From an uncultured delta proteobacterium (GTDB taxonomy: Bacteria > Desulfobacterota > RBG-13-43-22): a stretch of 64,000 nt of DNA. The notes below the pieces were generated by a model, which saw only the letters and a list, made by a program, of their open reading frames with translations, did no database searches and was not told where the DNA came from. Numbering within the stretch: the first letter of the stretch is position 1; the number at the start of each line of letters is the position of its first letter. The stretch covers positions 160,001 to 224,000 of the forward strand of contig CAWJJC010000010.1 in the NCBI GenBank assembly GCA_963843145.1, given 5' to 3'. This document shows, in pieces, positions 25,180 through 61,728 of the stretch. Both the position numbers and the translations under genes were made by a program.

Positions 25180-25681
25180 GCTTCACCACCTGGGACAAGG
25201 ACTGGACCACTTCCAAAAGAAAAACCAGACAGACGGGCACGGCCGAGAGCGCGATCAAAAAGGCAAAGGGGTAAAAGGGGACCCGGGAGGTGGACCCGAT
25301 TTCCCCGGCTTTCAGCAGGGACTGACCGTAGAGCAGGCTCTGCCAGGCCAGCAGGGCAAAAACCGCCAGCCCCAGCAGGGAGCTGAAAGCGCTGATCAGT
25401 CCCCGGGGTCGGGGAGATAACCGGTCTAACAGGAAGTCCACCCGGATATGCTGGCCTTTCAAAAGGACGTAGGCGATCGGCGGGGCGATGGCCACTACCT
25501 GAAAAAAGCCAATCACTTCGACGGCCCCGGGCATCGGCCAAAGAAGCAGTTTCGCCCCGACCACATCGACCAGATTGACCACAAACATGGCCAGAAAGCC
25601 AAACAACCCCACCCATTCCAAGGAGCGGCTCAGCGTGGTAATGAGCCGCTCCAGGGTACCTTGACGGTTGAGCACTTCCAT
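25166..25681 (-). CDS. dctQ: TRAP transporter small permease
   Basis: Four TM segments, HIRVD motif. Confidence 0.9.
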   Translation of the reverse strand: MEVLNRQGTLERLITTLSRSLEWVGLFGFLAMFVVNLVDVVGAKLLLWPMPGAVEVIGFFQVVAIAPPIAYVLLKGQHIRVDFLLDRLSPRPRGLISAFSSLLGLAVFALLAWQSLLYGQSLLKAGEIGSTSRVPFYPFAFLIALSAVPVCLVFLLEVVQSLSQVVKHGSR

Positions 25682-25695
25682 GGGGTTCCGTGGCC

Positions 25696-26763
25696 CTATT
25701 TCACCCGCACGGCGGCCGGACCGGTGGCGGACTTGACCCCCGCTTCGATTTGCTTTTTGGTCCAGAAATCGATCCGTTGTCCGATGAAGTCCAGCCAGCT
25801 CCGGACTTCCGGCTCCGGGTAGCCGACGCCGACCATGGATTTGACGTACTTATCCAGGACCGGATGCACGGCTTGCTTCCAGCGCGTGACCTGGTCCGGG
25901 GACAACTCCGAAATCTTCAGCCCTTTTTCCAGACCGTATTTTTTGCCATCGGTATCGGCGTTGTTCCACATGACCGCGAATTTTTCTTCGAAGGGATATT
26001 CATTGAAAATCTTTTGGATGTCGGGCGGAAGCTTGGCCCAGACCTCCTTGTTCATGATCAGGTAAAAGGTATACACCTGGCCGATAGGCCAACATTCCGT
26101 GGCGTATTTGGCCACCTCGGCCAACCGAAAGGCTCTCAGGGTTTCCATGGGGATCAGCAGCCCGTCGATCACATGTTTGCTGACCGCTTCATAGGCCTCC
26201 GGCATGGGGATGGCCCGGGCCGTCCCGCCCAGGGCCGTGACCGATTCGGCGATATACCCCAGTCCCCGCAGCGTCATGCCCTTCAGGTCTTCCAATTTCA
26301 TTACCGGCTTGGTGGCCGACAGGACCACGTTCGGCGGGCTGGTATGCATGGAGAGCATATGAATCTTGTCCCATTCCTTGGGTTTGAATTTCCGGAAATA
26401 ATCGTTGGCGACATGATTGGCCACCCAGGCATCGGGAAAGCCGATGGGCAGGTCCAGGGCTTCGGTCTCCTTGAAACGACCGAAGGTATAGGCGACGTTG
26501 GAAAGTCCGATATCCCCGATCCCTTCCACGACCCCGTCGTACATCTTAGGGGCGCTGAGCAGGGTGCCTCCGGGGAAATAGCGGAACTTCACCCGGCCGC
26601 CCGTTCGGGCCTCCAGGTCTTTGATCATTTCTTCGCAAATCTTGGATTGATTCGAGGGGGCCGGAAAGTAATTGCAGAATTTCAACTCGATGGCCGCCGA
26701 GGCGAGGGAAGGTACCACCAAACCCAAAACCAGTAGACAGGAAACAAATAGCTTCTTGCTCAT
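25696..26763 (-). CDS. dctP: TRAP transporter substrate-binding protein
   Basis: Signal peptide, RTGGRVK..PGGTL, LEDLKG.TLR; ATG 26763 with AGGAGG. Confidence 0.9.
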   Translation of the reverse strand: MSKKLFVSCLLVLGLVVPSLASAAIELKFCNYFPAPSNQSKICEEMIKDLEARTGGRVKFRYFPGGTLLSAPKMYDGVVEGIGDIGLSNVAYTFGRFKETEALDLPIGFPDAWVANHVANDYFRKFKPKEWDKIHMLSMHTSPPNVVLSATKPVMKLEDLKGMTLRGLGYIAESVTALGGTARAIPMPEAYEAVSKHVIDGLLIPMETLRAFRLAEVAKYATECWPIGQVYTFYLIMNKEVWAKLPPDIQKIFNEYPFEEKFAVMWNNADTDGKKYGLEKGLKISELSPDQVTRWKQAVHPVLDKYVKSMVGVGYPEPEVRSWLDFIGQRIDFWTKKQIEAGVKSATGPAAVRVK

Positions 26764-40678: not shown

Positions 40679-41233
40679 ATGTTTTTAATCACTATTCTGG
40701 TACTGATCGTTGTCCTGGGTTTCCTGGTGATCGGCCCCTACAACGCCCTGGTCCGGGGAAGGAACGAGGTCAAAAACGCCTGGAGTTCGATCGACGTCCA
40801 GCTCAAGCGGCGCTATGATCTGATTCCCAATTTAATAGAAACGGTTAAGGGATATGCGGGCCACGAAAAAAAGACCCTGGAGGCGGTGGTCCAGGCCCGG
40901 CAGCAGGCCGTTAACTTTAGCGGGGGAGTGGAGGAACGGGCCCAGGTCGAAAATGTCCTGACCTCGGCCCTGCGTTCGCTCCTGGCCGTAGCCGAGGCCT
41001 ACCCGGACCTCAAGGCCAATCAAAACTTTCTGGCCCTGCAGGAGGAACTTTCCAACACCGAGAACAAAATCGGCTTCTCGCGACAGTACTATAACGATGC
41101 CGCCATGCGCTACAGGAACCGGGTGGAGATGTTCCCCAGCAATATCGTTGCCAATATTTTTGGTTTTCAGGCCGAGCCATTTTTTCAAGTGGAAGCCACC
41201 GCGGAACGCGTGGCTCCTCAAGTGAAATTTTAG
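40679..41233 (+). CDS. lemA: LemA family protein
   Basis: N-terminal TM, YNALV..AWS.IDVQLKRRYDLIPNL..EAYPDLKANQNF..ENKI..SRQYYN..FP.NI. Confidence 0.96.
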   Translation: MFLITILVLIVVLGFLVIGPYNALVRGRNEVKNAWSSIDVQLKRRYDLIPNLIETVKGYAGHEKKTLEAVVQARQQAVNFSGGVEERAQVENVLTSALRSLLAVAEAYPDLKANQNFLALQEELSNTENKIGFSRQYYNDAAMRYRNRVEMFPSNIVANIFGFQAEPFFQVEATAERVAPQVKF

Positions 41234-41250: not shown

Positions 41251-41520
41251 ATGGTTGAGACACTTCAGAATATCGGTTGGGCGGTGATTTTTTCAATAAT
41301 GGGCGGCCTGATCGGGATGGCGCTGGTCATCGCCTCATCGCTGATCCTGCCGTCGCTCATCGATCGCCTGACCCCCAACATTGACGAACAGAAGGAAATT
41401 GCCCGCGGCAATACCGCGGTGGGGGAATACTACGGGCGAGTCGTAGGCTCCGCCATCCTGGGGGTGAGCATCGTAGTTGCCGCCGCGGTATTGGGCGGGA
41501 TCCTCGCCGCCTTGCATTAA
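41251..41520 (+). CDS. Small two-TM membrane protein (DUF350-like)
   Basis: DRLTPNIDEQKEIARGNTAVG between two hydrophobic helices. Confidence 0.7.
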   Translation: MVETLQNIGWAVIFSIMGGLIGMALVIASSLILPSLIDRLTPNIDEQKEIARGNTAVGEYYGRVVGSAILGVSIVVAAAVLGGILAALH

Positions 41521-41550
41521 TCCTTTTTTTTGCCTCGACGAAAGGTGCCT

Positions 41551-44500
41551 ATGAAACGGCTTGTCGGACTGACGGCGTTGTTTCTCCATTTGCTCAGTCC
41601 CACCCTGTCCTGGGCCCGAGGCGGGGGCGGCTGCCTGGAAGAGGGCACCCCGATTCGGACCCCAAAGGGGTCGGTGGCCATTGAAAAGCTGGTGGTGGGC
41701 GACCCGGTCTGGAGTCTATCCGCCGGCCAACTGCGGGAGGCCAAAGTCCGGGCGGTTATCCGGGTGCTCCCCCAAGAGATCCTGGAGATATCCGCCAGGG
41801 AGACCCGGTTACGGGTCACCCCCGAACATCCGCTGCTGGTGGCCCCCGGAACGTATCGCCAGGCAGGTTCCCTTTTCCCGGGGGATACGGTTTTCCTTTT
41901 CAGGGCTGGAGCGCTGAAGGCCGAGACGGTCCGGTCCATTGAACACCGGATAGCGAAACGCCCGGCGTATAATCTCTTGGTCAGCCCGGGCGGGACCTTT
42001 CTTTCCGGGGACCTGGTCCTGCACAATAAGGGCTGCTTCCTGCCCGATAGCCCGATCCTGCGGACGGACGGGACGGAGGTGATGATCAGTGCCGTGAAAC
42101 CGGGCGATGCCCTTTGGGCCTTCACGCCGGGCGGACACCTGGTACCCACCCGCACCCGGTCCGTGATTCGCCTCGAAGCGGATGAGTATGTCCTGATGAA
42201 GACCGATCGGGTCACGCTGCGGGTAACCCCGGAGCATCCTTTCTACGTCGGCCGGGGAACCTTCAAGACAGTCGAAGCCCTCAAACCGGGGGATACCGTC
42301 CTGGCTTTTGACGGGAAATGGCTGGCCAAACAGCATATTGTTTCCCTGGAGAGGGTCCGGGAACGGGTTTCGGTCTATAATCTCCAAACCGATCGGCCTC
42401 ATACCTTTTTCGTCAGCGGGGTGGCTGTCCACAATAAGGGCGGAGGATGTTTCCCGGCCGGAACCGGGATTGCCACTCCCCAGGGAGAGCGGTTCATCGA
42501 AGAATTGGCTGCCGGAGACGAAGTCCTTGTCCGTAGACCCGGAAGGGCGGACGGTTCGGAGCCGGGTGAAAACCATCCTGGTGAATAAAAGCCCCCTGCT
42601 GAAAATTAAGACCGCCAGGGGTTTCCTGCTGGCCACCGAGGACCACCCGATACGCGTGGGGAAAGATAGGTTTCGGCCGGCGGGGGATCTCCGCCCGGGA
42701 GAGCAAATCACCCGCTGGAATGAGGGCCGCCTGGCCGCCGACACGGTTCGGAGGATAGACTCCGGGCTTAAGGAAGGACTCGTCTTTAATCTCGAAGTTA
42801 CCGGTCCCCATACCTTCATTGCCGGCGGCGTCGTCGTTCACAATAAGGGGGGTGGTTGCCTTCCGGCGGGAACTCCCATCCAAACCCCTAAGGGTCAAAC
42901 CGCGATTGAAGAGCTGGCCCCAGGAAGCCCGGTACTGTCCGTTGATCCCGAAGGCCGGGTTATCCCTACCCACGTTGAGAAGATTTATAAGACCCGGGCA
43001 CTGCTTATCGAAGTCGTCACGGATGCCGGGTCCTTGCGAACCACTTCCGACCACCCGGTGGGCAGTCCCGGCGGGGCGTTCGTTCCCGCCGGGCGGCTGC
43101 GGCCGGGCCGGGAAGTGCTCTTCTGGAAGGACGGGGTTCTCCGAACGACCCGCGTCAAGCGGATCGTTTGGGAAGAGCACCCGCAACCGGTCTACAACCT
43201 CAGCGTAGGCTGGCCGAACACGTTTCTGGCCTCGGGGTTTCTGGCCCACAACAAGGGAGGGGGAGGATCCAGAAGCTCAAGTTCCGGTTCTTCCCACGGG
43301 AGGAGCGGCGGCAGCACGCTCCACCTGGGAGGATCTGATCCTTTCTTTCTTTTTTATCGTCTTCATTTTTATTCTTGTTCGTGATCGTCTTTGTCGCGAT
43401 CGCTTCCAAAGCTTTCCAAGAAAAAGAGCGAAAATCTCGACTTCGTTTACAGCCGCAATCAGATCGATCCCAAGGCACAAAAGACCGAGAAACTGTTGGC
43501 CTTCCTCAGCCGTCAGGATTCCTCCGTCTCCCCGGAAACGCTGCGCGATCAGGCGAAGGCCACGTTCCTCAAACTGCAGGAATGCTGGGGTAAACGGGAA
43601 TACGGGCCCATGGGGGCGCTGCTGGTACCGGACCTCTATACCCAGCACACGGCCCAGCTCCAGGGCTTGGCCCGGAACCACGAGATCAATCGGATCGACG
43701 ATCTGACAGTGGAGCGGATCGATCTGGTGAATGTCCGCTATACCGAAAAGGGGAATCAACGGGAGTTCACCGCTCTGATTACCGCTTCGGCCCGGGATTA
43801 TTATCTGGACGACCGCTCGGGAAAATTCCTCCGGGGCGATCGGACCCCGGCGCGTTTTCAGGAGTTCTGGACCTTCCAGTTGATGAACGGACGTTGGCTG
43901 CTGCGGGAGATCGAGCAGGCGGGGGAAGCGGATATCCTCAAGGATGACAACTTCGCCGAGATGCTGACCGAAGAAACGCTGAAGGGGATTTACGGAGAAG
44001 CATCCGTCCCCACAGGGGAAGCGGGGCCCTGGCTGGAGAAAGAGGTGGAACAGAAGGCCGGTCGCACCGACCGCTTGTTGAATTTTCTATCCCAGACCGA
44101 CAAGCTCTGGAATCGAAACCAGATGCTCGAACGGGCTCGTCAGGTTTTCCTGGATGTCTACCTGGCCCGGGAAACAGGCGATCCGGCCCGGGTCGCGGCC
44201 GACGACCTCTTTCCGAAGGTGGCCGAGGATTTGAAGACCCAGGTGGCTTACTGGAAGAATGAGGGCGTCGTCGTCGAATACCGGAATCTTTGTGTGCGCA
44301 AGGTGGAGCTGCTCCTGGTTCGTAATTCGGGGACAACACCCGGGATGAATATACGGTGCGGGTCAGCGCGCATGCCCAGCGGATGATCCGCAAAGGTGAC
44401 CAGTCCTTGAGCGCCCAGGACTACGTCACGCCCTTTGAAGAGTACTGGACTTTCGGCCGCCTGGAGGGACAGTGGAAACTGAAGGAAGTATTGCCTCCGG

Positions 44501-44595
44501 GCCAGGGGAAAAAGGCTGTTGGCCTGGAAAACGTGGACGAAGACAGCAACCCCGGGCAGCTCCAATGGTATTACCGGCAGCCCCGCGTCCGTTAG
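41551..44595 (+). CDS. Signal peptide - 4x tandem Hint (BIL/intein-like) - Gly/Ser linker - TM - 2x Tim44-like protein; frameshifts at ~42527, ~43320-43415 (several) and ~44330
   Basis: Hint1 41632-42027, Hint2 42034-42435, Hint3 42448-42844, Hint4 42857-43252, each C..TxxHP..(Y/F)NL..HN; Tim44-type ends FQEFWTF..WLL.EI and FEEYWTF..WKL.EV. Confidence 0.85.
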
Positions 44596-44988: not shown

Positions 44989-47900
44989 TTAATGCTCGAT
45001 CAAAGGCAAGTACAAATGCAACTTGCCATCAAAAGGGATATACTGAGGGGTCAGCACATCGAGGACGACTCCGCCCAGCAGTTGCGCGCCCGCGTAGCCC
45101 TCCACGGCAATCCGAGGTTTCCGGCCCTGGGAGATCGGAGATCCCGCCGCTATCTGCACGGTCACGGGGACCTGTTCACCCGGTACCAGGGTCGCCTGGG
45201 CGGGCGAGACCGTCACCATCCAGTCCGCGGGGAGGTCGATTCTACGATAACGCACATCGATAACGGCCGTCGCACTCCCCGGGTTGCTCACCGGGAAGGT
45301 TTCCGTGGTCTGATAGACCTGCACCATGGTGTTTCCACTCGCGGCCGCACCGATCGACGCCAACGCGGCGCCGGCCGAACCGGCGGTCACGGTCGGGACG
45401 AAGACCACGGGATGCAGGAACAGTTCGCTGACCTGCCGGAAGCTCGCCGAAAGATCCTGCAGCTTGGTGCGCGGGCTCTCGCCCAGGAGGGTGGGATCGG
45501 CCGCGATCAACTGCTGACGGCGGTTTTCAATCTGCGCGTCGCTGAACCCGGCGGCGTGGTAGTCATTGATATCGTCGGCGCTGAAGCCCGTCGTTTTCAA
45601 CTGGTCCTGGTAGGCGAGGACGGCGTCGAGCGGGATCGGGTTGTCGGGTACGGCCTCGCTGACCAGCAGGTTGGTGAAGGCGTCCACCTTGTCGGCGGCG
45701 GCCGCCAGGGAGGAAGCCAGGCGCAGTTTAAAGTACAGAAAGGCGTTCGCCTGGATGGAGGCCCACTGGAGGGAGTTGGCCTCCGACGCCCCGCCGTTGC
45801 GGTCGATTGAAACGGCGGCCCCGCCGCCGTCATAGACGAGATCCGCCAGGGCATTGGCCAGATCATTAAACGCCGCGGCCTCGGCCGGGGTTACCCCGGT
45901 CGTCGGGGTCGCGGTGATGATGGCCAGCCGGGCCGGGATTGTCACGGCCCGGTAATCCTGGCTGGGCGGGTCGCCGGTAAGAGAATTGGAAATATCCTGC
46001 GCCAGCGACAGCAGCATGTCGATCATGTGTCGGGCCAACCTGAGCGGGATTTTGAAGGGGGTCGTGTCAAAGGCTTTGTCGATAAAGGAGTTCATCTTCT
46101 CAAGGGAGTTCTTCGTCTTCTGCAGGCCCGATTTTTGCGGCGGGCTGACCAGTCCCGGTTGATAGATCTTGAGATTGCGCTGCCTCCGCCCCGAGGATCC
46201 CGCTAACAGCCGCGCGTTCAAGGCTCCCGAGCCGACTGAAGTGATACTGTACTGCACTTCGAAGCAATAGTGACCGGAAACCACCGGCGTCCACGGCAGG
46301 CTGAAGGTGCGCGTGCTGCCGGCCGGGATGACTTCGCCCGTAAAGGTCCCCAGGGGACCGAAGACCAGGCCGACCCCGGATTGGACAAAACCGAAGGTCA
46401 GGTCCACGGTGACGGGCTGGGGCAGCGGATTGGTCAGCGACGCACTGACCGTGGCCGGGACGCCCTGGATGGCCGGCAGCGGGGTCACGTCGATATCGTT
46501 GCCCAAATAGGGAGCCGGGGAATTGGGGAACAGTTCAGTCAGGTTGAGCGGGGTGGTGAAGGTGATTTTCGATTGGGGTGACATGGCGTATTCGCAGGCG
46601 CTGGCGGCATCCAACGTGGCCGTCACCAGGGCATCCCCGGTTCCGGCCGAGAGAAGGTAAGCCAGCGTTTTTCCGGTAATATCGGTTATGCCGCCATCGG
46701 TCACGGTCCCCAGATTCGATTTAAGCTTGACGGTGCGTCCGGGAAGGGGCGCGCCGTTGCCGTCGGTCAGGGTGAGGTCAAAATAGACCTTGGTCAGGTT
46801 ATCCGCCGGGGCAAACCAGCGCCGCGGCGTGAGGGTGATGACTGGAGCGTTGCTGAGGGGAAAGTCCACGTTGGCCACGGTGCTGGTGAGGAAGGGGACG
46901 AACAGCACCCCGGCCGTGACGTTATCGCCCGCGCCCGTCCCGCAGGCCGGCGCCAGGTCGGAATGGGGCCCGGTGGGGTCGCCCCACCAGTTGTTGGTGG
47001 CCAGGACGGCGGAGTTGGTGGTCGCGTTGCGCACACCGTACAGGGCGTTACCGGTAATCTGGCTTTCCAGGACCGATCCGCCGGCGTTGCTGTCGAAGCG
47101 CACCCCGTCCTTGGAGCTGTTGCGGATGATGCTGTGCCGGGCCACCAGCATCCCGTTCGAGAGATAGATATTGGCCCCCAGGCGTCGCTCCCCCCGTACT
47201 CGACCGTGGTGTACTCCAGTTGGGCCGTCGCCGGCTGCGTTCCGCCGAAAACCACCAGCCCGCGCCAGGAACCGGGACTTTGGGTCTGACCGGTCAACAG
47301 CACCGGCTCGGTGGCCGTCCCCATTACCTGGAGGCCCCCGCCGATCGCCAGAAACCCTGTGGCGGTGAACTTCAAGGTGCTGCCCGCTTCGATGGTCAAG
47401 GTATTGCCCAAGAGGTTGGCCACCCCCGAGTCTATCAGATAGGGAATGCCCGGATTGGCCCAGTGCCGTTGGCCGGTTACGGTGGTCACCGTGGACACCA
47501 GCACGGCATTGCTCCCATTACCGCCGGCAGTTAGGCTGCTCAGCTTAAGGTCCCCTGAGGGTGCGTTGAACTGGAGCGCATTTTGACCGTTGCCGGTAAA
47601 GCTGGAGGAGCGGATTTCGAAGCCGCTTCGGTAAGTGCCATAGACGCCGTTTCCGGCGCTGCTGTTGATCGCCGAGTGTAAAATGGTGAGCACGGCCCGG
47701 TCCGCGTAGACGGCCGCCCCGAAGGAACCGCTGATTCCGCCATACTCGATGGTCGCATACTCGAAGGTTGCGGAAGCGTTGGGCGCCCCATCCACGTTGA
47801 TCCCTCCCCATGAACCGGGGGATGCGGTCACGCCGGTAAAAGTAATCGGGTTGGCGGGTGACCCGATCGCCACCAGGTTGCCCTGAACATAGAGTGTGCC

Positions 47901-48152
47901 TGGAGCGGTGAATTGTACGGTCACACCCGGATCGATGGTTAGCGTGACCCCACCGGGGATCGTGGCCCCGCCCGCGCAGACATCGTAGGGACTACCGGCT
48001 GGAGTCCAGGTGGTGGTGACGAGCGATCCGCAGATGGCAGTCGGTGCTGCCTGGGCGGTTTGAATCATTTGGAGATGTTCGATCAAGAAGCATCCGATCA
48101 GGACCAGGATACCCAAGAAACAAGCCTTTAATCCAGTCATAAAATGAACCAC
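44989..48152 (-). CDS. Large secreted protein (right-handed beta-helix, Big_1/Ig-like, helical and Ig domains) ending in LYLPLI; frameshift at ~47170
   Basis: Signal peptide; TWTPAGSPY, TLTIDPG, PGSWGGI/PGSWRGL, NNWWGD..GP; ORFs 46794-48152 and 44989-47151 join. Confidence 0.75.
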
Positions 48153-48794
48153 CTCAACTTCGCCTGAAATAAAGAGTGCGATCCTCTTATGTAGGTTGAG
48201 CTATTCACCAGGGGAATTCTCCCGGGCAGCATTATTAGCCCGGAGGTCTCCATTCCTATCCTCTACGCTTGTCCGGTATAATTTTATGCATTGAATAAAA
48301 AAGGATAAATAGGGTAAATACTGCATTTTTAAGATGGAAACACAGTATTTTATGAAACAGGTTAGCCCCTAGTAATCCGGGAGGTAGCCTCCGGATAAAC
48401 TGGAACAGAGCCGACAGATGCGCTTTCGAGGAATATATGCGCGGACTGGCGCGGCCGGATGCTGCCGGGGCCCTCTTTTAGGTCATGGGCCGGAAGATTG
48501 AGGCTGGTTAGGATATTTAGAAGGAAATTAGGCCGGGGAGAACTTCCTCGCGGATAATGGAAAGCCAAAGGCAAAGGGCCGAAAGAGACCGCAAGTCGTT
48601 TAGCGCCGGAAAGATTATCCGTCCCCTACACCAGCCGGGACCATTCATCCGGTCGGCCTGACGAAATGGAATGTATTTCTTCTAAATTCCATGCAGAGGG
48701 GTCCCGGCCTCAACCTGCCCCGGCGCCTCATCACGGATCAGCTTCTCACTTTTCTCCTCCGCGGCCCGGCCCACACGCATTGGTCCTTTCGTTA

Positions 48795-49502: not shown

Positions 49503-50247
49503 AGGCCGCCTCCCCTAAATAGACCTTGCGCACCCGGGCGTCGGAGGCAATCACCTCGGGCGGGCCCTCGACGAGGACCGCCCCGGCGACCAGCACGGTA
49601 ATCCGGCGGGCAAAGCGGAAGACCAGATCCATGTCGTGCTCGATCAGCAACACCGCGACGGTGCTGGGCAGTTCGGCCAGGGTGCTATAAAGTTCAACCC
49701 CCTCCCCTTCGGGGATGCCGGCAGCCGGCTCGTCGAGCAGAAGCACGCGCGGGTGAAGGGCCAGGGCCAGGGCAATCTCGATCATTCGCTGCCGTCCGTA
49801 AGGCAAAGTCTTAGTGGGCCGGTGGGCACAATCGAGCAGGTGCAGACGATCCAAAAGCTCGGCGGCTTCGTCGATCGTTTCCGTATCCCCGGCCAGGCGA
49901 GACCACCAGCGGGCCGTGGTGCCACGCCGTTGGGCCACGGCTAAGGCGACACTTTCCAGGGGTGTCAGGCCCGGAAAAAGTTGATTGACCTGGAAAGTGC
50001 GTACGAGCCCGTGGGAGACCCGCTGATGTTGGGCTACTTCAGTGATGTCGACGCCGTTTAGGATCACCTTTCCGGCGTCCGGCCGGAGAACGCCGGTCAA
50101 TAGGTTGACCAGAGTGGTCTTGCCGGCACCGTTGGGACCGATCAGCGCCTGGCGAGCGCCCTGTTCGACTGTCAGGGAAATGTCATGGGCGACCATCAAA
50201 CCGCCGAATTGCTTTCTGAGACCCTTGGTTTCCAAAGCCGACTGCAT
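49495..50247 (-). CDS. livG: LIV-type ABC ATPase
   Basis: KQFGGL, GPNGAGKT, RTFQ, LPYG, DEPAAG, IEHDM, VYLG; ATG at 50247. Confidence 0.9.
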   Translation of the reverse strand: MQSALETKGLRKQFGGLMVAHDISLTVEQGARQALIGPNGAGKTTLVNLLTGVLRPDAGKVILNGVDITEVAQHQRVSHGLVRTFQVNQLFPGLTPLESVALAVAQRRGTTARWWSRLAGDTETIDEAAELLDRLHLLDCAHRPTKTLPYGRQRMIEIALALALHPRVLLLDEPAAGIPEGEGVELYSTLAELPSTVAVLLIEHDMDLVFRFARRITVLVAGAVLVEGPPEVIASDARVRKVYLGEAAYG

Positions 50248-50249
50248 CT

Positions 50250-51305
50250 TCAATCTCCCGGGTGCCCGGCTTCGCCCGGCCCAGGCCGATGCAGAAAGGA
50301 CAGGCCCCTTGAGGCCAGTCCCATGAGTCCACCCCGGGCCAGGAAGACGAGGGCGATGAAGGCAATTCCGATCCAAAACTGCCAGTATTCGGGGCTGATG
50401 TCGGAGAGCCAATACTGGGCGACGATCAGCGCCAGGCTTCCCACCAGGCCGCCGTAAAGCGTACCGGCTCCCCCGAGCACAACGACCAACAGTACCTCGG
50501 CCGATTTCCCGAAGGAGAGCACGTCGAGGGAGACGAATTGCGTGGTCTGTGTCAGGAGGGCCCCGGCGATGCCGGCCAGGGCGGCCCCCAGGGTATACAC
50601 GACCACCAGACGCCGGACCACGGGGGTGCCCAGGGCATGCATGCGTCGTTCATTTTCCTTGATGCCGCGCAAGGCCAGGCCGAAAGGAGAATGGACGAAG
50701 CGCCGGACCAGAAGAAACGAAAGGAAGAGAACGATCAGGCTGTAGAGGTACGCCGTGCGACCGTACAGACCGAAACCCCAGATCCCCAAGATGGGCCGGA
50801 CCGTTACCCCCTGAAGTCCATCGGCGCCGCCGGTGAGCCCATGCAGCTTATTGGCCAACTCCAGCAACATGAGGCAGATACCGAGGGTCACCATAAGCCG
50901 GGTGAGATCCGAGCCGCGCAGGACCAGGAAGCTGGTGGCAAAACCGACAAGGGCGGCCGCCAGACCCCCGATCACCAGCCCGCTGAGGGGTTCGCCCCAG
51001 CCCTGCTGGGCCAAGATCCCGGCCGCGTAGCCTCCCAGTCCGAAAAAGGCCGCGTGTCCCAGCGAAATGATGCCGGCATAACCGAGAATAAGGTCGAGGG
51101 AGAGGGCAAAGAGGCCCATAATGGCCACACGACTCAGCAGGACCAGTTGCCGCGGAAAGAGGAAGTAAGCGGCTATCGTCAGAACCCAGAAGACGATCTC
51201 CAGGGGTCGCCAGGAAGCCGCGGCCTGAAGAGGCGCGGCTGCGGTCCGATACCGAATTCGGCGGCTCTGCGCCAGGGGCGACTCCCTGGGGTCTGAACCG
51301 GTCAA
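50250..51305 (-). CDS. livM: LIV-type ABC permease
   Basis: GYAGIISLGHAAFFG, TGGADGL, SPFG..L.GI.ENE, LGG.GT. Confidence 0.9.
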   Translation of the reverse strand: MTGSDPRESPLAQSRRIRYRTAAAPLQAAASWRPLEIVFWVLTIAAYFLFPRQLVLLSRVAIMGLFALSLDLILGYAGIISLGHAAFFGLGGYAAGILAQQGWGEPLSGLVIGGLAAALVGFATSFLVLRGSDLTRLMVTLGICLMLLELANKLHGLTGGADGLQGVTVRPILGIWGFGLYGRTAYLYSLIVLFLSFLLVRRFVHSPFGLALRGIKENERRMHALGTPVVRRLVVVYTLGAALAGIAGALLTQTTQFVSLDVLSFGKSAEVLLVVVLGGAGTLYGGLVGSLALIVAQYWLSDISPEYWQFWIGIAFIALVFLARGGLMGLASRGLSFLHRPGPGEAGHPGD

Positions 51306-52165
51306 GACGTGGCTCTTCTGCCGAAGAGGCCCTGGGGCCGCCAGATGAGCATAACGACCATGACGGCATAGATGATAAAGGCCCCGATTTCGGGGATGTA
51401 GTACTTACCGGCCACATCGAAGACGCCCAGGATGAGCGCCGCAGCCAACGGGCCGCCTACGGTACCGGTCCCGCCCACGGCGACGACGATCAAAAAATAG
51501 ACCAGGAACTTTACCGGAAAAGTCGGGTCCAGGTTGAGGATTTCGATCCCCAGGGCTCCGGCCAATCCGGCCAGTCCCGATCCTAAGCCGAAGGTGATAG
51601 CGAAGAGACGATTGACATTGATGCCCAGGCCCCGGGCGACACGTCCATTATCGACGGCGGCACGCAGCCGGCTGCCGAAGCGGGTCCGCATCAGGCCCAG
51701 GTGGAGGAACAGGGCGATGAGGCCGCAAAGCCCGATCAGGAAGAGGCGGTAGACTCCGACGTCGAAGCCGGAGAAGACGTGAAACTGCCCTTGCAGGAAT
51801 GAGGGAACTTGAATGATCTGATGTTGAGAGCCCATGAAATAGGCGGCGGCGGCCATGGAGGCAAAGACGATCCCAATGGTGAACAGCACCTGATCCAAGG
51901 GATGGGCATTGTACAGGCGAACGTAGAGGGTGCGCTCCAGGATCACCCCGGCCAAGGCCGAAACGATGAAGGCTACGGGCAGACAAAAGAGGAAAGGCAG
52001 GCCCCAGTGGTTCAACAGCACCACGGCCACATAACCGCCTAACATGGCGAACGAACCGTGGGCCAGATTGACGAAGTTCATGATGCCGAGGGTCACGCTT
52101 AACCCGAGGGCCAGCAGGAATAGCAAAGCCCCCGAGGAAACGCCATCAAAGAGGACGGTCAACAT
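51302..52165 (-). CDS. livH: LIV-type ABC permease
   Basis: GLSVTLG.M.FVNLAHG, TRFG..LRA, VVAVGG.G. Confidence 0.9.
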   Translation of the reverse strand: MLTVLFDGVSSGALLFLLALGLSVTLGIMNFVNLAHGSFAMLGGYVAVVLLNHWGLPFLFCLPVAFIVSALAGVILERTLYVRLYNAHPLDQVLFTIGIVFASMAAAAYFMGSQHQIIQVPSFLQGQFHVFSGFDVGVYRLFLIGLCGLIALFLHLGLMRTRFGSRLRAAVDNGRVARGLGINVNRLFAITFGLGSGLAGLAGALGIEILNLDPTFPVKFLVYFLIVVAVGGTGTVGGPLAAALILGVFDVAGKYYIPEIGAFIIYAVMVVMLIWRPQGLFGRRATS

Positions 52166-53842: not shown

Positions 53843-55556
53843 TTATTTCACCGGGGAGGCATCCCACTCCCCTTCCCGTCGCAATTGTTCCACGATGGGC
53901 TGGGCCAGCTTCTGCAGGGCCAGCTTGTCCACTTTGGTGCTGCGGGTGATTGGGAATTCCCGGCCGGCGGGCCAGAGCTCCACATGCTGGGGCCGCTTGT
54001 AGGAGGCGATTTCCCGGCAGTGGGCCAGCACTTCCTCGGCGGTCAGCGCCGCCCCCGGGAGGAGGCGCACAAAGGCAAAGATCCCCTCGTCAAAAAGCCG
54101 ATGTTCCAGACCCACCACTTCGGCCACTTCCACCCCGGGCAGCCGGCCGATGTGGGCTTCGACCTCATCCGGAAAAACGTTATAACCTTTTTGTTTGATC
54201 ACGAACTTCCGCCTCCCGGCCAGAAAGAGGGCCCGGTAGGTTCCCAGGTTTTTGAAGGAGCCGAGGTCCCCGGTATAGAGGATCCCTTCTCTGGAAATGG
54301 TTTTGGCCGTTTCCTGAGGCTGGTTGTAGTAGCCGAGGAACACCAGGGGTGGATGGTAGCAGATCTCCCCGATCTCCCCTTCAGGGAGTTCCTCCCCGGC
54401 GCTGCCGTCCGGGTTCATGGGCCTGCGGACCGTAACGGCCGCCAGGTCGGGGAAGGCCCGCCCCACCTGGCCGACCATTTCCTCCGGCGGAATATCCTTC
54501 GGGGTAAAGGTGGCGAAGCCGGCATTTTCGGTCATGCCGATACCGGTGCCGAAATGGGGAGCCATGCCGGAGAGTTTTTTCAGGAAGGCCAGATCCACCG
54601 CCGAACCGGCATAGGCCACGAAGCGCAGGCTGCTCAGATCGAGACCGGGATAGTCGGGATGATTCCAGAGCATCCGGTACTGGGTGGGGATCTGCCCGAG
54701 GACATTGACCCGGTGCTTGGGAATGGCCTCCAGGGTCATCTTGACATCAAAGATGCGCAACAGGACGGTCGTGCCCCCCAGGGCCATGGTGGTCATGAAA
54801 CATTCGGTCAGACAGCCCACGTGGCTGGGAGGCAGGTTGATCAGGATACGCAGGTCGCTGCCCAGTCCCACGTCCAATCCCCGGGCCAGGATCTCGTTCT
54901 GGGTGATGATGTTCTCGTGGCAGAGCAGGGCCGGTTTGGGATCGCCGGTTGTCCCGGTGGTATAGATGATCAAGGCCGGGGTCCGGGGTTTGACCTGTCG
55001 ATAAGCCTTTTCCAGCCTCCGGGTGAAGAGGTCCTTGATTTTCAAAGCCAGGAGCTTCTTCTTGTCCATCATCCCGGTGATCGACCAGGCCCCGTCCAGG
55101 AGTTCCCCGGGCTTCGGGTCGGCCGTAAACTGCACCAGAAATTCGACGGAAGGGACAGTGCGCTTTTACCGCTTGGCCGACCTGGCGGAAATCTCGGACC
55201 GGGGTCTGTCCCAGGAAGAAAAAGACCTTGGGGTTGATTTTGTTCAGGTCCCGGACGACTTCTTCATCCTTGAGGCGCAGGTCCAGCGGGGAAACAATGG
55301 CTCCGATCTTAAAACAGGCGTACATCAGCATCAGGTGTTCCGGAATCAAAACCAGTTGGGTGGCCACGCGGTCTCCCTCCCGGACACCCATATCCAGCAG
55401 ACGCAGGGCGAAGAAGTCGATCAGGGAAAGAAACCGTTTATAGGATACGGTTTTGCCGTCCTCGTGCTGGATCATGGCCGGTTTATCCGGAAAGGTTTTC
55501 GCCCAGTGCTCGATATAGGAATTGACCAAGGGTAATCTAACAAAAGGGGTGGTCAT
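53843..55556 (-). CDS. Acyl-CoA synthetase (AMP-forming), frameshift at ~55150
   Basis: YTTGTTGDPK, GMTE, YTGDLG, GYNVFP; N-terminal part in ORF 54747-55556. Confidence 0.85.
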
Positions 55557-55569
55557 GTTTCCTCCTTAT

Positions 55570-55943: not shown

Positions 55944-56843
55944 TCACCCACTTTCGGTGAGTCCGTCATTTTTTATGAAGGCGTAGCCTTTGCTGATGGC
56001 CGGCTGCCCTTCCGCGTTCTGGACGATAAAATACAGATCGGTCCCTTCGGGCCGGGGGAGTTTTCCGACTAGACCAATCCGAATGGAGGTCCCGGGCAGA
56101 ACCATACCGCTGAACCGGCCGGAGAAGGCCCCGAGTCTCCGGGGATCCTTCCCGGCTTCCCGATTCAGGATCTCCCGGGCGGCCAGGGCCAATGTGGCGG
56201 TTCCCTGGAGGATGATCCCGGGCAGCCCGACCCGGCGGGCAAAGCTTCGCGAGGTATGGATGGGGAAGAAGATATTGGTACAGCCGTCGTAGAGGAAGGG
56301 CCGCAGGGTGTCGATGGGCAGGGTCGTTTCCCAGAGGGCTCGGTCCGCCTCCGGGACGGATGGGATCGCCGGGAGGGCCTCCTGCCCCTGCCCGTCCCCG
56401 GTGCAGGACACTCCCCGCATCAAGGCCCCGGTATGCTCGGTGAAAACCCGTTGGCCCTTCTGGTCCGAAGCCTCAAAGCAGATCACTACCCGGGTCCCGG
56501 CCCGATGGGGCAGGATGGCGGCGATCTTCCCCTGAACCGTCAAGTGATCTCCGGGCCGCGCGGGGCGATGGAAGACCAGGTGCTCGGTATGGTGGACCTG
56601 GGTGAAGAGGACCTCCGGTGGAAACCGCTCGCTGTCGATAAATTCCCAGATCCGCTCCAGGATGGGCCAGGTAACAGCCACGCTGAAAAGCGGTGGGGCG
56701 ACAATCCCCGGATCGCGCTCGTCGTCAAAATACCAGGGATTGTCATCCCCCACGGCGGCAGCGTAATTCATCGTCTCCCGCCAGGTCACTTCCCGGTCAT
56801 AGGGTTTCAGCATCGTTCCGACCAGGTCTGAACTCAGGTTCAT
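55944..56843 (-). CDS. Double hot-dog MaoC-like (R)-enoyl-CoA hydratase/dehydratase
   Basis: YAAAVGD.NP, PIH..FA..GLPGIILQG, RF.G.VLPG. Confidence 0.85.
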   Translation of the reverse strand: MNLSSDLVGTMLKPYDREVTWRETMNYAAAVGDDNPWYFDDERDPGIVAPPLFSVAVTWPILERIWEFIDSERFPPEVLFTQVHHTEHLVFHRPARPGDHLTVQGKIAAILPHRAGTRVVICFEASDQKGQRVFTEHTGALMRGVSCTGDGQGQEALPAIPSVPEADRALWETTLPIDTLRPFLYDGCTNIFFPIHTSRSFARRVGLPGIILQGTATLALAAREILNREAGKDPRRLGAFSGRFSGMVLPGTSIRIGLVGKLPRPEGTDLYFIVQNAEGQPAISKGYAFIKNDGLTESG

Positions 56844-56949
56844 GAAGGTCTCCCATTGGTACGAAAAACCACTTCGTGATTTAAAATTCGGTGTTCGATA
56901 TTCGAACTTCGTTTTTTCCTTTTCATATTAAACCGTTTTCCCTTGAGGC

Positions 56950-57738
56950 TCAGGATCGGCCTTCCTCGGCCAGGCAGGCGGCGCCAAGGGCGGCGGTGAG
57001 CCGAGGGGTCTCCGGAACCCGCACCTCCAAACCCAGGGCCTCGCTGACGACCCGGACCAGGCCGGTGTCTTCGGCCCCGCCGCCAGTGAGAACCACCTCC
57101 GGCTCCATTTTCACCCTTTTGGCCAGCAGGGCCACTTTGGCGGCCATGGCGCGATGCACGCCGGCCAGCAGGTCTTCCGGACGGGCGCCTTCAGCCAATC
57201 GCGAGACGGTCTCCGATTCGGCAAAGACGGCGCAGTTGGTGGAAAATTCCACCGGCCTTTCCGATTTCAGGGAAAGTGGGCCGATGGCTTCCCATTCGAT
57301 CTGCAGGATACGGGCTATGATCTTCAGGAAGCGGCCGGAGCCGGCGGCGCATTTTTCGCTGATCAGGAAATCGACCACCCGGCCCTCGTTGTTCAGCTTG
57401 GCGGCTTTGGTGAACTGCCCGCCGATATCGATCACGGTGCGGGCCGCTGGGAAGTGGAAACGGCAGCCCCTGGCCTGGCAGGATATGTCGGACACCGTCC
57501 GGGCCGAAAAGGGGGCGCTTTCCGCTCCGACACCGGTGACCACAATGCCGGCGAGTTGTTCCCGGTTCAGCCCGGCCCGGGCCAAGGCCGCCTCCAACAC
57601 GCCTCGGGCCGTTTCCCGGTAGCGCCCCCCGGAAGGACACATTTCGGAAGCCAGGATTTTTTGACCGCTGAGCAGCACCGCCTTGATAAAGGCCGAACCG
57701 ATATCCACTCCGGCAAAACAGGCGGGCGCTTTGCTCAT
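56950..57738 (-). CDS. ASKHA activase subunit (BzdP/BcrD-like)
   Basis: GVDIGS, DIGGQFTK, SEKCAAGSGRF, NCAVFAESE. Confidence 0.85.
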   Translation of the reverse strand: MSKAPACFAGVDIGSAFIKAVLLSGQKILASEMCPSGGRYRETARGVLEAALARAGLNREQLAGIVVTGVGAESAPFSARTVSDISCQARGCRFHFPAARTVIDIGGQFTKAAKLNNEGRVVDFLISEKCAAGSGRFLKIIARILQIEWEAIGPLSLKSERPVEFSTNCAVFAESETVSRLAEGARPEDLLAGVHRAMAAKVALLAKRVKMEPEVVLTGGGAEDTGLVRVVSEALGLEVRVPETPRLTAALGAACLAEEGRS

Positions 57739-58565
57739 TGGAAGAAGGTCACCCCTTCCAGTTTTCTGGCCCGGTTCGGGATCACCCCGCGGGCGGTGAA
57801 GTCCATTCCCAAGAGGGCCGCCCCCAACGCACCGGTGAGGAGGGGTTCATCGGGCACCAGCACCGGGAAACCGACCTGGTCTCCCACGGCCTGGATCAAC
57901 CCGCTGTTCATGGCCCCGCCGCCGGTGACTGCCACGTCCTTTTGGATCCCCAGAGCGCGGACCAGATTGACCACCCGCCCGGCAATGGCCGCGTGCAACC
58001 CGGCGATGATTTCCGGGATACCCGCCCCCTCGGCCAGCCGGGAAGTCACCTCGTGTTCGGCAAAGACGGTGCAGGTATTGGAAATAGGGACGGCTTCCTT
58101 GGCCATCAGCGAAAGGCCGCCCATTTCGGCCAGGGGGATCCCCAGGGTATCGGCGATCACCTCCAGGAAACGGCCGGTACCGGCGGCGCACTTATCGTTC
58201 ATGACAAAGTTGATGACCTTGCCGCCGGCGTCCAGCTTGATACCCTTGGAGTCCTGCCCGCCGATATCGATAACCGTCCGGACCGTGGGAAAGAGGGCCC
58301 GAATGCCCCGGGCGTGGCAGGTGATCTCCGTAATCTGCTTGTCGGCGAAGGGGACGTTGATCCGTCCGTACCCGGTGGCCACGATAAAGTCCAGGCCCTC
58401 CAGGGCCAGGCCCGTTTTGTCCAGGATCCCGGCCAGCACTTGCAGGGCTAAATGGCGGTGTTCGGCGCCGGTAGGGCCGATGATTGATCCCAGAACTTTT
58501 CCTTCCCCGTCGGTGATAACCGCCTTGGTCATGGTGGAGCCGATGTCAATGCCGGCATAGGGCAT
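57735..58565 (-). CDS. ASKHA activase subunit (BzdQ/BcrA/HgdC-like)
   Basis: GIDIGS, ATGYGR, TEITCHA, DIGGQDSK, MNDKCAAGTGRF. Confidence 0.9.
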   Translation of the reverse strand: MPYAGIDIGSTMTKAVITDGEGKVLGSIIGPTGAEHRHLALQVLAGILDKTGLALEGLDFIVATGYGRINVPFADKQITEITCHARGIRALFPTVRTVIDIGGQDSKGIKLDAGGKVINFVMNDKCAAGTGRFLEVIADTLGIPLAEMGGLSLMAKEAVPISNTCTVFAEHEVTSRLAEGAGIPEIIAGLHAAIAGRVVNLVRALGIQKDVAVTGGGAMNSGLIQAVGDQVGFPVLVPDEPLLTGALGAALLGMDFTARGVIPNRARKLEGVTFFQ

Positions 58566-58613
58566 AATTATCTTTTGTATACCGTCTCTTTATTGTATTT
58601 ACCGGTAATCTCT

Positions 58614-58698
58614 CGTCATCCCCGAATGCCTTTATCGGGGATCCATTGTTCCTTGAGAAAGGCCTGGATTCCCGCTCAGAAGCGCTGCGGAAATGACG
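58614..58698. repeat. Family C element inside the operon spacer
   Basis: Reverse-complement match to 44708-44792. Confidence 0.75.
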
Positions 58699-58853
58699 CG
58701 CATTAATTCCGAGTAGTTTTTGTTTTGGTCATTTGGATTTGGGACTTTCGTGCTTGTTTCGAATTTCGTGCTTCGGATTTCGGATTTAAAGATCGCGCCG
58801 GTTCAATACTATTATCGTACCTGGACCCTTTGCCCCTTTCTCCAACCTTCCAT

Positions 58854-60167
58854 TTACGCCCGCCCCGCCAGGGCCTCGATAAAGGCCCCGATCTGGGCCT
58901 TCCAGTGGGCCTCGGAGTAATCCCGGAGATCGACCATGTCGGAGACCAACTGCATCATGGGGATATCCGTGAATTGACCCAGGAGGTTTTTGATATGCAC
59001 CTGGCCGACCGTGGTCGCCCGGCAGGAACGGCAGGCGTGGAAGACCACCCCGTCGATCCGGTAATCGTTGATCATCCCCAGCAGCTTTTCCACGATGGGA
59101 TGGCCGCTGTGGGCCCGGGCCTGGTCGTGACGCTGCGTGAAGCGCAGAAAGGTCCGCCAGGCCAGGTATTCGACCGGGTCTTTGATCCGGGCCGGCACTT
59201 CCACGGGGTCGTAGCCCCGGTAAACGTTCTCAATTACGAATACGGCGCCGAAGCTTTCGAAGTAATTAAAGATCCAGAGGGTGTGCCAGGGGGGCAAGCC
59301 ACCGCCGTAGAGCAGGCGGTACTTTTCCTCGGGGATGACGCCGATCTTGTTTTCCGCCTTGGCCTTGACCTCATCGTAGAGCCCCTGGTAGAAATCCACC
59401 GCCACCTGGGTGCCGGAGAAATAATGGCCGGCCACCATGACGCTGAAGTGGTCCTGGGTCGGCATGGGGCTGGGGACGGCGACGCGCAGTCGGTCGATCT
59501 CGTACCAGAGCCGCCAGGACTCATCCCCCAGCCGGATGGTCTCCCAGAGCCTCTCTGGATCAAGCTTCTGGCCGGTCTGCTGCTCGAGAAACCCGATCAG
59601 ACCCTGAAACTGCTCTTTTTGATAGTGGATATAGTAGTCCCGCACCCGGTCCAGGTCCGCGTAAACCGGCGGCCCAACCACATCGATATTATAGGTAGGC
59701 ACGTCCAGGTAGCGCCCCGCCGCCTGAAACCATTTGAAGCGGGGGTCGCAGACGGCGCTGCTGCCCAGCATCAGGTCTGGGACGGGCATCCCGCCGTCCG
59801 GGGCGTTTTCCGGCAGGCCGCCCAGCTCTTTTCGCAGGCTGTCGAAGCCCAGGCCGATCCGGGCATAGCTGCAAAGCACCTGGGAGTAGCCGTCCGCTTC
59901 CGCCTGGAGGAGAAAGCGGTCCATGTCGCGCTTGGCGGCGCACAAGCCGGCATAGTTTTCCGTGGGCAGAGGCACGATATCCATGGCCCGCAGGATTTCG
60001 TCATACTGGGAAGCCACCATAAAATAGGCCACTTTCTGGCCCCGGGCCTTGGCTTCGTGGGCGTTCCGGTAGATGCTCTTCACCAGGGCCCGCACCTGCC
60101 GGGCCGTTTCCGTGCCTTTGATCGCCGTGGTTTTTTGCTTTCCCTTCTCTTCCCTAACCATAACCAT
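58854..60167 (-). CDS. 2-hydroxyacyl-CoA dehydratase / benzoyl-CoA reductase subunit (BzdO/BcrB-like)
   Basis: PTENY, LCSY, CDPRFKWFQ, EKYRL, DGVVFH..SC, DMVD.R. Confidence 0.85.
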   Translation of the reverse strand: MVMVREEKGKQKTTAIKGTETARQVRALVKSIYRNAHEAKARGQKVAYFMVASQYDEILRAMDIVPLPTENYAGLCAAKRDMDRFLLQAEADGYSQVLCSYARIGLGFDSLRKELGGLPENAPDGGMPVPDLMLGSSAVCDPRFKWFQAAGRYLDVPTYNIDVVGPPVYADLDRVRDYYIHYQKEQFQGLIGFLEQQTGQKLDPERLWETIRLGDESWRLWYEIDRLRVAVPSPMPTQDHFSVMVAGHYFSGTQVAVDFYQGLYDEVKAKAENKIGVIPEEKYRLLYGGGLPPWHTLWIFNYFESFGAVFVIENVYRGYDPVEVPARIKDPVEYLAWRTFLRFTQRHDQARAHSGHPIVEKLLGMINDYRIDGVVFHACRSCRATTVGQVHIKNLLGQFTDIPMMQLVSDMVDLRDYSEAHWKAQIGAFIEALAGRA

Positions 60168-60172
60168 TCCCT

Positions 60173-61312: not shown

Positions 61313-61728
61313 GGGATGTGTTCCTTAATACGAAAATAGAACCCGGCGCCACTCGGGCATTCATCAATAATTAATAATTAACAATTGATTATTAATTATT
61401 AATGTAAACCAGTTAGGCTTATATCGCCCCTTATTTTCATGTTTCGGGGTGCCCGCCCCGGGCAGGGGGGTTTAGTATGAAAATCCTTATCACCCTCTTC
61501 TATTTAAATCCATTACATTTTGTGTCTCCTGCAAAAATCCTAAGCCATCATTCCGGGGCAAATCGGCATCCAGGAACGCTAATCATTTCGGTTAACAATT
61601 TTCTACAAAAATGGTTACCGTTTTTAATCATCAAAAATCATTGATAAAATCTTCCTTGGGAGGGGTTATGGGCAGCCGGCCTTGGCAATCGGGTGTAAGA
61701 GACTCCCGCGGTCTTATGGGATGATTTA

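Follow-up and report, generated by a model that had tools for sequence, protein, structure and literature searches.

The chemistry of protein splicing is defined by the residues at both junctions, and to our knowledge all accepted splicing classes carry Cys, Ser or Thr at the +1 position or use no side-chain nucleophile there. Published work defines A-type bacterial intein-like (BIL) domains as Hint domains with the C-terminal His-Asn present and the +1 nucleophile absent; they form a thioester, cyclise their Asn, and the freed amine can then attack the N-terminal thioester, which amounts to ligation (PMC4031507), and they yield mainly cleavage products (PMC4031507, PMC7664689). Reviews place BILs in hypervariable regions of non-conserved proteins. 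In Tetrahymena, the BUBL BIL2 domain passes the acyl group on its Cys1 to the epsilon-amine of a Lys in other proteins, forming an isopeptide without ATP (PMC8616854). Here, we describe a 64,000-nucleotide stretch of DNA from an uncultured delta proteobacterium (the window; positions 160,001 to 224,000 of contig CAWJJC010000010.1), in which a plus-strand gene encodes a Tim44-like protein whose N-terminal tail holds an array of four Hint domains at 41617-43270, with the flanks RGGGG/C, HN/KG/C, HN/KGGG/C (twice) and HN/KGGGGS (slashes mark Hint boundaries). These junctions are best explained as processing sites of four catalytically complete Hints resembling A-type BILs. The short lysine-glycine linkers that join them are nearly unchanged in hundreds of related bacteria, which points to an unstudied form of protein self-processing.

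Hint units and lysine junctions

All parts of the array lie on the plus strand. The translation opens with the signal peptide MKRLVGLTALFLHLLSPTLSWA, which ends in SWA (41551-41616), followed by RGGGG, the N-flank and N-extein of Hint1 (41617-41631). Hint1 (132 aa, C...VLHN, 41632-42027) is separated by the micro-extein KG (42028-42033) from Hint2 (134 aa, CFLPD...AVHN, 42034-42435), which leads through KGGG (42436-42447) to Hint3 (C...VVHN, 42448-42844), and a second KGGG (42845-42856) connects to Hint4 (132 aa, C...LAHN, 42857-43252) and the closing KGGGGS (43253-43270). Hint1 and Hint4 are delimited by Pfam, NCBIfam and translation, Hint2 by Pfam, a PDB sequence match, Foldseek and translation, with Hint1 and Hint2 also modelled together, and Hint3, which carries a 1-nt insertion at ~42528, by tblastn frames, the spacing of HN codons and DNA alignment. 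Each of the four has Cys1, a block B T-x-x-H (TPEH, TPEH, TEDH and TSDH, respectively) and the C-terminal His-Asn. As a sequence-only reading of this stretch had noticed, the translation has Gly before every Hint (Gly-Gly in three of four) and Lys after all four, never Cys, Ser or Thr. The DNA motif CACAA(T/C)AAGGG, which that reading had reported as kept four times, is indeed found four times in the window against 0.05 expected from 100 shuffles, none of which held four, and all copies lie at the HN/KG codons and nowhere else.

The Hint model and the intein N- and C-terminal splicing motifs are matched in the array (Pfam; NCBIfam intein_Nterm and intein_Cterm). An AlphaFold2 model of RGGGG-Hint1-KG-Hint2-KGGG-C (predicted local distance difference test, pLDDT, 91.2; predicted template modelling score, pTM, 0.87) suggests that Hint1 and Hint2 pack against each other in a defined manner. 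Foldseek returns 62 PDB matches at E ≤ 0.001 for this model, the listed ones being BIL, intein or Hedgehog autoprocessing domains, with BUBL BIL2 (6y75; E 7e-9, TMt 0.81) at the top, followed by 2lwy (TMt 0.84), DnaB mini-inteins and Hedgehog. By sequence, the best PDB match (for Hint2) is 2lwy_A, an A-type BIL of C. thermocellum (E 1.6e-6), and an archaeal RadA intein and Tetrahymena BUBL BIL2 come next. Sequence and predicted structure together place the window units in the Hint/HINT superfamily, as catalytically complete domains of the A-type BIL kind.

Conservation among homologues, on which the sequence-only reading had staked its interpretation, is near-complete at the junctions in three homologue sets. 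Of 8000 candidates scored in a word-indexed search, 780 longer proteins reached E ≤ 1e-3, and the 120 close homologues listed from it are mostly of ~1010 aa (four Hints) or ~875 aa (three Hints); parsed with a regular expression that required HN and Cys1, they have Lys at +1 in 455 of 456 units and Gly at −1 in 427 of 456, the rest being mostly mis-parsed first units. Because this expression misplaced the first unit in ~30 proteins, taking a Cys of the signal peptide as its start, and also produced three false linkers, the tallies were repeated with boundaries set by a hidden Markov model (HMM). A HMMER scan of 1.84 billion representatives yielded 11,351 hits at E ≤ 1e-3, 1,406 at E ≤ 1e-10 and 219, which are clusters at 50% identity, at E ≤ 1e-30. 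In 150 of the 11,351 hits (representatives at 50% identity), parsed with no requirement for Lys, HN is present in 229 of 229 units, Lys+1 in 222 of 229 (Arg once), Cys1 in 214 of 218 and Gly−1 in 206 of 218. Finally, a one-genome-per-species collection gave 227 matching stretches, from which 80 species-level loci (L043-L122) were parsed by HMM, with HN in 217/218, Lys+1 in 218/218, Cys1 in 220/220 and Gly−1 in 219/220. The T-x-x-H motif is kept at 99-100% (T 99%, H 100%; 248 units). The 80 loci carry at least eight phylum-level labels, including Deltaproteobacteria/Thermodesulfobacteriota (Syntrophaceae, Smithella, Desulfobacteraceae), Verrucomicrobiota, Planctomycetota, Lentisphaerae, Nitrospirota, Anaerolineales, Auribacterota and Anaeromyxobacteraceae. 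Every one of these records is a metagenome bin, and in our searches the host anaerobes were met solely as metagenome-assembled genomes.

The exteins themselves follow the same rule. Among 336 internal linkers of the 120 homologues, KGGG occurs 150 times, KG 129, KGG 30, KGGGGG 21, KGGGG twice and KGGGGGG once, and three are mis-parses, so that all 333 well-parsed linkers consist of Lys and one to six Gly. Lys likewise comes first in 140/140 internal linkers of the 80 loci, 139 of which are Lys with one to seven Gly and one KGGF, with KG accounting for 82. The N-flank is xRGGGG in 78 of the 80 loci, with the Arg behind the signal peptide, and the flank after the array is always K-G-G-[G/S] in both the 120 homologues and the 80 loci. 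Among seven relatives, the junction codons for His, Asn, Lys, Gly and Cys vary synonymously (for Lys, AAG 16 times and AAA 7 times); selection at the junctions therefore acts on the protein rather than on a DNA repeat, and the same variation rules out repeat-driven DNA conservation as the source of the junction motif.

A point absent from the earlier reading is that Lys+1 persists in this Hint clade where the linkers are not glycine. Specifically, P0380 and P0375 carry Hint triplets with long Thr/Gly/Pro-rich or short linkers, and these have Lys at +1 (KDCYKR.., KEAPDS.., KPHI) and Ser, Asn, Thr, Leu or Ile at −1. Because Lys is kept in hosts with long non-glycine linkers, it is probably part of the clade's own mechanism. 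P0353 (1285 aa) is a different host of the same clade, with about seven Hint units, each with an inserted segment, junctions HN/KGG, KGA, K, KC and RS, a proline-rich end and no Tim44 domain.

The array varies in length and appears to be old. Units per protein number two in one of the 120 homologues, three in 28, four in 87, five in two and six in two, and no protein with fewer than two parsed units was found among these 120. The six-unit proteins P0001 and P0002 are triplications of the Hint1-KG-Hint2 pair, and the two-unit form (G044) is that pair alone. In the 62 well-parsed of the 87 four-unit proteins (the 25 mis-parsed ones being left out), units at the same position share identities of 0.52-0.66, against 0.29-0.40 for units at different positions. 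Since same-position units are more alike than units at different positions, the array predates the divergence of these proteins.

Host protein and gene neighbourhood

The array is followed by KGGGGS, a Gly/Ser-rich tail and a single transmembrane (TM) helix (43253-43420, +; three-frame translation and DNA alignment to two intact orthologues), and then by two Tim44-like domains (43421-44595, +; Pfam, with a tblastn frame change) that are predicted to be cytoplasmic and contain a 1-nt deletion at ~44325-44327. Pfam Tim44-like (PF04280) matches in two stretches with 76.5 bits against a cut-off of 29.6 (E 3e-21); NCBIfam Tim44_TimA_adap reaches 30.3 against a cut-off of 80, and the host protein is not TimA-type. 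Of 120 homologues, 113 have a hydrophobic segment at the N-terminus and 118 a TM-like segment after the array, with a median of one Lys or Arg before the helix and four after it. Signal peptide, single TM helix and positive-inside pattern together put the Tim44 domains on the inner side of the membrane and the Hints with the Gly tail on the outer side, as judged from sequence. The array is best explained as an insert in the N-terminal R-GGGG / GSRS tail, on the periplasmic side, of a double Tim44-like protein anchored in the membrane.

The gene is linked to two others on the same strand. A LemA family gene (40679-41233, +; Pfam LemA E 1.4e-60) opens the module, and between it and the Hint-Tim44 gene lies a gene for an 89-aa DUF350-like small membrane protein (41251-41520, +; Pfam DUF350 E 3e-6). 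Among 59 loci with a full 3-kb flank, the DUF350-like gene stands directly upstream on the same strand in 58, and LemA upstream on the same strand in 37, mainly in deltaproteobacterial loci. The DUF350-like protein was found in 78 of 80 loci, with a length of 89 aa in 71 of 79 sequences and a loop, TP..DE.KEI.RGN.AV, that hardly varies; it is conserved together with the Hint-Tim44 gene under many phylum-level labels. The linkage is best explained by a Tim44-like host that works together with the DUF350-like membrane protein and often with LemA. A term search in a LemA preprint (10.64898/2026.10.21.759321) gave no mention of Tim44, DUF350 or this gene neighbourhood.

In this genome, Hints of this kind occur only at this locus. 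A Hint-less Tim44 paralogue lies outside the window (G000:C10:57529-57972; 331 aa), starts ..VMA/RAGGGLSGGFRGSRS and has genes for a VTT/rhodanese protein and a sigma-54 activator as neighbours, not LemA or DUF350. Such paralogues start ..A/R-[A/I]-G-[G/R]-G-x-S..GSRGSRS in nine of nine loci, in agreement with the R-x-GGG start that the sequence-only reading had given for Hint-less Tim44-domain proteins. Like the window protein, they combine a signal peptide and a basic oligo-Gly start with a TM helix and a Tim44-like domain at the C-terminus (Pfam E 1.2e-39); they differ in having one Tim44 domain instead of two, ~28% identity, no Hints and another gene neighbourhood. The K-GGG(G)-S-R-S after the array resembles the R-A-GGG-R-S of the paralogues, and because the Hint-less proteins start R-A-GGG-RS, the array appears to interrupt this very motif, with RGGGG ahead of it and K-GGG(G)-S-R-S behind. 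A second Tim44 subfamily (P0284, P0281) carries RAGGG/C...HN/KGGGYRGGGSS. A search for Hint-less orthologues with the double-Tim44 part gave 305 hits at E ≤ 1e-10, of which 120 of near length are listed and 22 N-termini were inspected; for 21 of these, the start fell within a Hint, the tail or the TM helix, so that they are fragments or mis-called starts, and P0228 alone looked truly Hint-less.

Two further observations concern the rest of the window. Anaerobic metabolism of acyl-CoA or aromatic compounds is indicated by genes at 177-1592 and 55947-61324 for a UbiD-like decarboxylase, two BcrAD_BadFG ATPases, two HGD-D dehydratase subunits and a MaoC dehydratase, in keeping with a syntrophic deltaproteobacterium. 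AT skew spikes of 0.25-0.26 at 24001-26000 and 50001-52000 coincide with minus-strand transporter genes (DctM/DctQ; two BPD_transp_2 permeases), and likely arise from T-rich codons of hydrophobic residues.

Proposed processing chemistry and rival explanations

We propose, with a probability of about 0.4, that the Hints excise themselves autocatalytically and that the pieces are rejoined by amine attack. After export and removal of the signal peptide, the Gly(−1)-Cys1 peptide bond of each Hint would be converted into a thioester, the Asn-Lys(+1) bond would be cut by succinimide formation, and the Lys amine, alpha or epsilon, would attack the upstream thioester and so rejoin the tiny pieces. The products would be free Hints and a mature protein with the tail RGGGG-KG-KGGG-KGGG-KGGGGSRSSS.., as in the Hint-less paralogues. 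Lys and Arg codons are one mutation apart, yet the two residues are not interchanged: at +1, where Lys is the rule, Arg occurs in one of 229 units, whereas directly behind the signal peptide Arg is found in 78 of 80 loci and Lys essentially never. For this reason, the amine rather than the charge seems to be selected at +1. Additionally, conservation of RGGGG, Arg included, would be expected only if this piece stays on the product or is transferred, so that Lys+1 and the N-flank together favour rejoining. Attack by the alpha-amine would follow the A-type BIL route, and attack by the epsilon-amine would give an isopeptide, as described for BUBL BIL2 (PMC8616854).

Several variants of this chemistry can be drawn. 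It is quite unlikely, in our estimate, that Lys(+1) is the step-2 nucleophile, its epsilon-amine attacking the Gly-Cys1 thioester before Asn cyclisation to give an isopeptide splice; if true, this would be a new class of protein splicing, in which the array builds, without ATP, an epsilon-linked, alpha-amine-rich oligo-glycine tail on a membrane protein of the periplasm, and BUBL conjugation would have a counterpart in bacteria. Another possibility is that the micro-exteins leave as cyclo(Lys-Gly), a diketopiperazine from H-Lys-Gly-thioester, or as cyclic KGGG, because KG would have its amine freed by the upstream Asn and its carboxyl still bound as a thioester to the downstream Cys1; engineered peptide cyclisation by split inteins uses a like geometry. 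The downstream Cys1, at +3 or +5, could also take over the upstream acyl group.

A number of points weigh against rejoining. The Lys epsilon-amine is a poor nucleophile at neutral pH. The gene of this genome has at least four frame breaks, and this copy may yield no protein. The −1 residue is other than Gly in non-Tim44 contexts. Unit number ranges from two to six, so the length of a rejoined tail is not conserved, which speaks against a tail with a precise role. Catalytic residues and flanks would be kept in a neutral, self-removing insert as well. Moreover, as cleavage dominates in published type A BILs (PMC4031507, PMC7664689), four successive ligations would be inefficient unless Lys+1 makes them efficient.

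The same observations bear on the rival explanations. The sequence-only reading had offered three: (a) delivery of the thioester-bound tag to an amine in the envelope, (b) sequential ligation and (c) cleavage alone. The conservation described above leans towards (b) or (c), and (a) gains no specific support. Cleavage alone is somewhat less likely than rejoining: the thioester would be hydrolysed, the Asn-Lys bond cut and the array discarded with the small peptides, leaving a mature N-terminus K-GGG(G)-S-R-S that imitates the R-A-GGG-R-S of the paralogues, and Lys+1 would serve succinimide formation and/or become the new basic N-terminal residue. The behaviour of type A BILs, which give mainly cleavage products, fits this outcome, as does the likeness of K-G-G-[G/S] to the start of the paralogues in nine of nine loci, and the variable unit number would be immaterial if everything upstream is discarded. 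It leaves unexplained why the Arg and exactly four Gly of a discarded RGGGG are kept in 78 of 80 loci, why the internal +1 positions are as invariant as the last one, and why all 120 listed homologues have at least two Hints. Acyl transfer to an outside nucleophile, be it a Lys of an envelope protein such as the DUF350-like partner, a peptidoglycan stem peptide or a lipid head group, would resemble Hedgehog or BUBL conjugation. BUBL BIL2, which attaches its N-extein to Lys residues in other proteins with no need for ATP (PMC8616854), is the top structural neighbour of the AlphaFold2 model; the array is predicted to be periplasmic, and its gene adjoins that of a small membrane protein in 58 of 59 loci. 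Hint2 and Hint3 also start G/CF, the start motif of Hedgehog Hint, and the Pfam Hedgehog Hint model (PF01079) matches with E 8e-15, the match being confined to the N-terminal part of the model. Such transfer is nevertheless very unlikely, given that the cargo would be just RGGGG, KG, KGGG or upstream Hints with the membrane protein itself left unattached, that none of the Hints leads into a sterol-recognition-like or acceptor-binding region, the next unit beginning 2-4 residues past HN, and that Lys+1 is left unexplained. A different question is why the array exists at all. Compatible with either cutting chemistry, the Hints may be tolerated, self-removing passengers without benefit, descended from a BIL that entered an oligo-Gly tail permissive to insertion and was then copied through unequal crossing-over at the repeated HNKGGGC DNA, with residues and flanks kept because a unit that does not leave would cripple the host protein. 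We consider this unlikely, although the range of unit numbers, the triplicated pairs of P0001 and P0002, the repeated junction DNA and the micro-exteins without cargo all agree with it: the same recombination should readily remove units, yet 21 of 22 inspected N-termini are fragments of Hint-bearing genes, the units are old positional orthologues with no homing endonuclease for spread, and the same architecture recurs across many phylum-level labels.

Whether the window copy is functional at all depends on its frame breaks. The Hint-Tim44 gene as deposited falls into several open reading frames (ORFs; 41530-42588, 42308-43384, 43391-44386 and 44356-44595), with at least four, probably five, single-base indels, one of them within Hint3, and all junctions intact. 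The sequence-only reading had the junctions of the four-Hint array right and overlooked the frame break that the array crosses within Hint3 (~42528). DNA alignment to two intact orthologues places an inserted T in Hint3 at ~42528 and another at ~43372, an inserted C at ~43412 and the loss of one base after ~44325; the odd nucleotide in the HN-to-HN spacing of 408/409/408 nt is consistent with the extra T at ~42528. A further shift at ~43310-43325 is suggested by eye in the three-frame translation, and an in-frame TGA stands at 43382-43384. With the closest intact homologue (P0003, 1013 aa), tblastn gives frame changes at ~42528 and ~44330. The gene runs in one frame in seven relatives (G001, G007, G009, G011, G013, G015 and G017) and is broken in three (G002, G003 and G016). 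Programmed frameshifting is ruled out by the roughly five scattered sites together with the intact orthologues.

Other genes of the window show similar breaks. A CoA-enzyme activase gene (BcrAD_BadFG + DUF2229; 9318-13499, +) has two frame changes, at ~11817 and ~12940, relative to the intact 1397-aa orthologue in G007, which is evidence that indels are spread through this assembly. An AMP-binding enzyme gene (53846-55565, −) is divided into two overlapping ORFs, one matching positions 2-100 of the Pfam model and the other 153-384, which looks like another frame break. The ORF of a Big_1 Ig-like domain (44992-47517, −) overlaps a long ORF (46797-48200, −) by ~700 nt, and there may be a further frame break in this gene for a big surface protein (44992-48200). 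That the Hint-Tim44 copy is a dead pseudogene, its junctions without present function in this organism, is therefore doubtful. The four or five indels and the in-frame TGA speak for it. They are most likely assembly errors for the greater part, which is likelier than decay because other genes of the window, the activase and AMP-binding genes among them, are frame-broken too. If the indels are disregarded, the coding sequence contains no further stops and matches intact homologues at 82-85% identity (tblastn), three of the indels fall in a T-rich stretch within 43253-43420, and frame breaks of the same gene recur in 5 of 80 named genome assemblies. At site 44327, the only indel site covered by public environmental contigs from related strains, at low depth, a 344-nt contig that is 98% alike (6 mismatches) has an extra A behind 44327, which restores ..RNYGDNT.. 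as in P0003.

Comparison with known Hint systems

The excision and rejoining proposed here can be set against the described Hint classes, several of which were excluded for the window units. A class 1 intein is excluded by Lys at +1 (4/4 window units; 218/218 in the 80 loci), a B-type BIL by His-Asn in all four units, and a Hedgehog/Hog Hint, a kind that lacks Asn cyclisation and has a sterol- or adduct-recognition region behind it, by the start of the next unit 2-4 residues past His-Asn, which leaves no such region. Pretoxin HINT (PF07591) matches with 59 bits against a cut-off of 27.7; a pretoxin HINT in the functional sense is excluded, as a TM helix and two Tim44-like domains follow and no toxin does. 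One ordinary PT-HINT in a relative has HN/N-C, not HN/K.

Tandem BIL arrays, in the ciliate BUBL loci, and A-type BILs are already known; the invariant Lys+1/Gly−1 rule, exteins of 2-7 residues, the periplasmic Tim44 host and the DUF350 linkage are new. Our literature search found no publication that pairs Tim44 with a Hint domain, no Hint theme in the titles and abstract starts of work on bacterial Tim44-like domains, and no title on a Hint-Tim44 family in the BIL literature. A natural, widespread family with Lys+1, Gly−1 and such short exteins offers a clean test of amine-based splicing. It could also supply compact modules for self-cleavage or self-ligation outside the cytoplasm, and it links Hint autoprocessing to an uncharacterised envelope module of LemA, DUF350 and Tim44-like proteins.

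Among the known systems, the A-type BIL of C. thermocellum (2LWY) shares with the window units a mini Hint of ~132-138 aa, Cys1, T-x-x-H, His-Asn and the absence of Cys, Ser or Thr at +1. The description in PMC4031507 agrees with the statement of the sequence-only reading that A-type BILs without a +1 nucleophile mostly cleave and can ligate by amine attack. The window family differs in its 2-6 units placed head to tail, its exteins of 2-7 residues and its near-invariant Lys+1 and Gly−1. Its host tail is of low complexity and its unit number variable; its host protein and insertion point are conserved across many phylum-level labels, where reviews place BILs in hypervariable regions of non-conserved proteins. 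Class 1 mini-inteins (Ssp/Npu DnaB) have the same fold, Cys1, T-x-x-H and His-Asn, whereas the window units, of 132-134 aa, lack a +1 nucleophile and a homing endonuclease, occur as tandem copies in a low-complexity tail and are not inserted in a conserved site of an essential enzyme, as is the trait of class 1 inteins. With BUBL1 BIL2 (6Y75, 6TMM), the family has in common the Hint fold and tandem BILs in one polyprotein, and the Lys isopeptide described in PMC8616854 gives the idea of a Gly-Gly thioester attacked by Lys in a ubiquitin-like manner, which the sequence-only reading had put forward, a precedent in the top structural match of the AlphaFold2 model. In BUBL, entire ubiquitin-like domains serve as exteins and the acceptor Lys is part of the domain that follows, whereas in this family the exteins are K(G)n, of 2-4 residues in the window, and the Lys itself stands at +1; BUBL belongs to the eukaryotic cytosol, the window family is bacterial and, by its predicted topology, periplasmic, and the two share only ~20-22% sequence identity.

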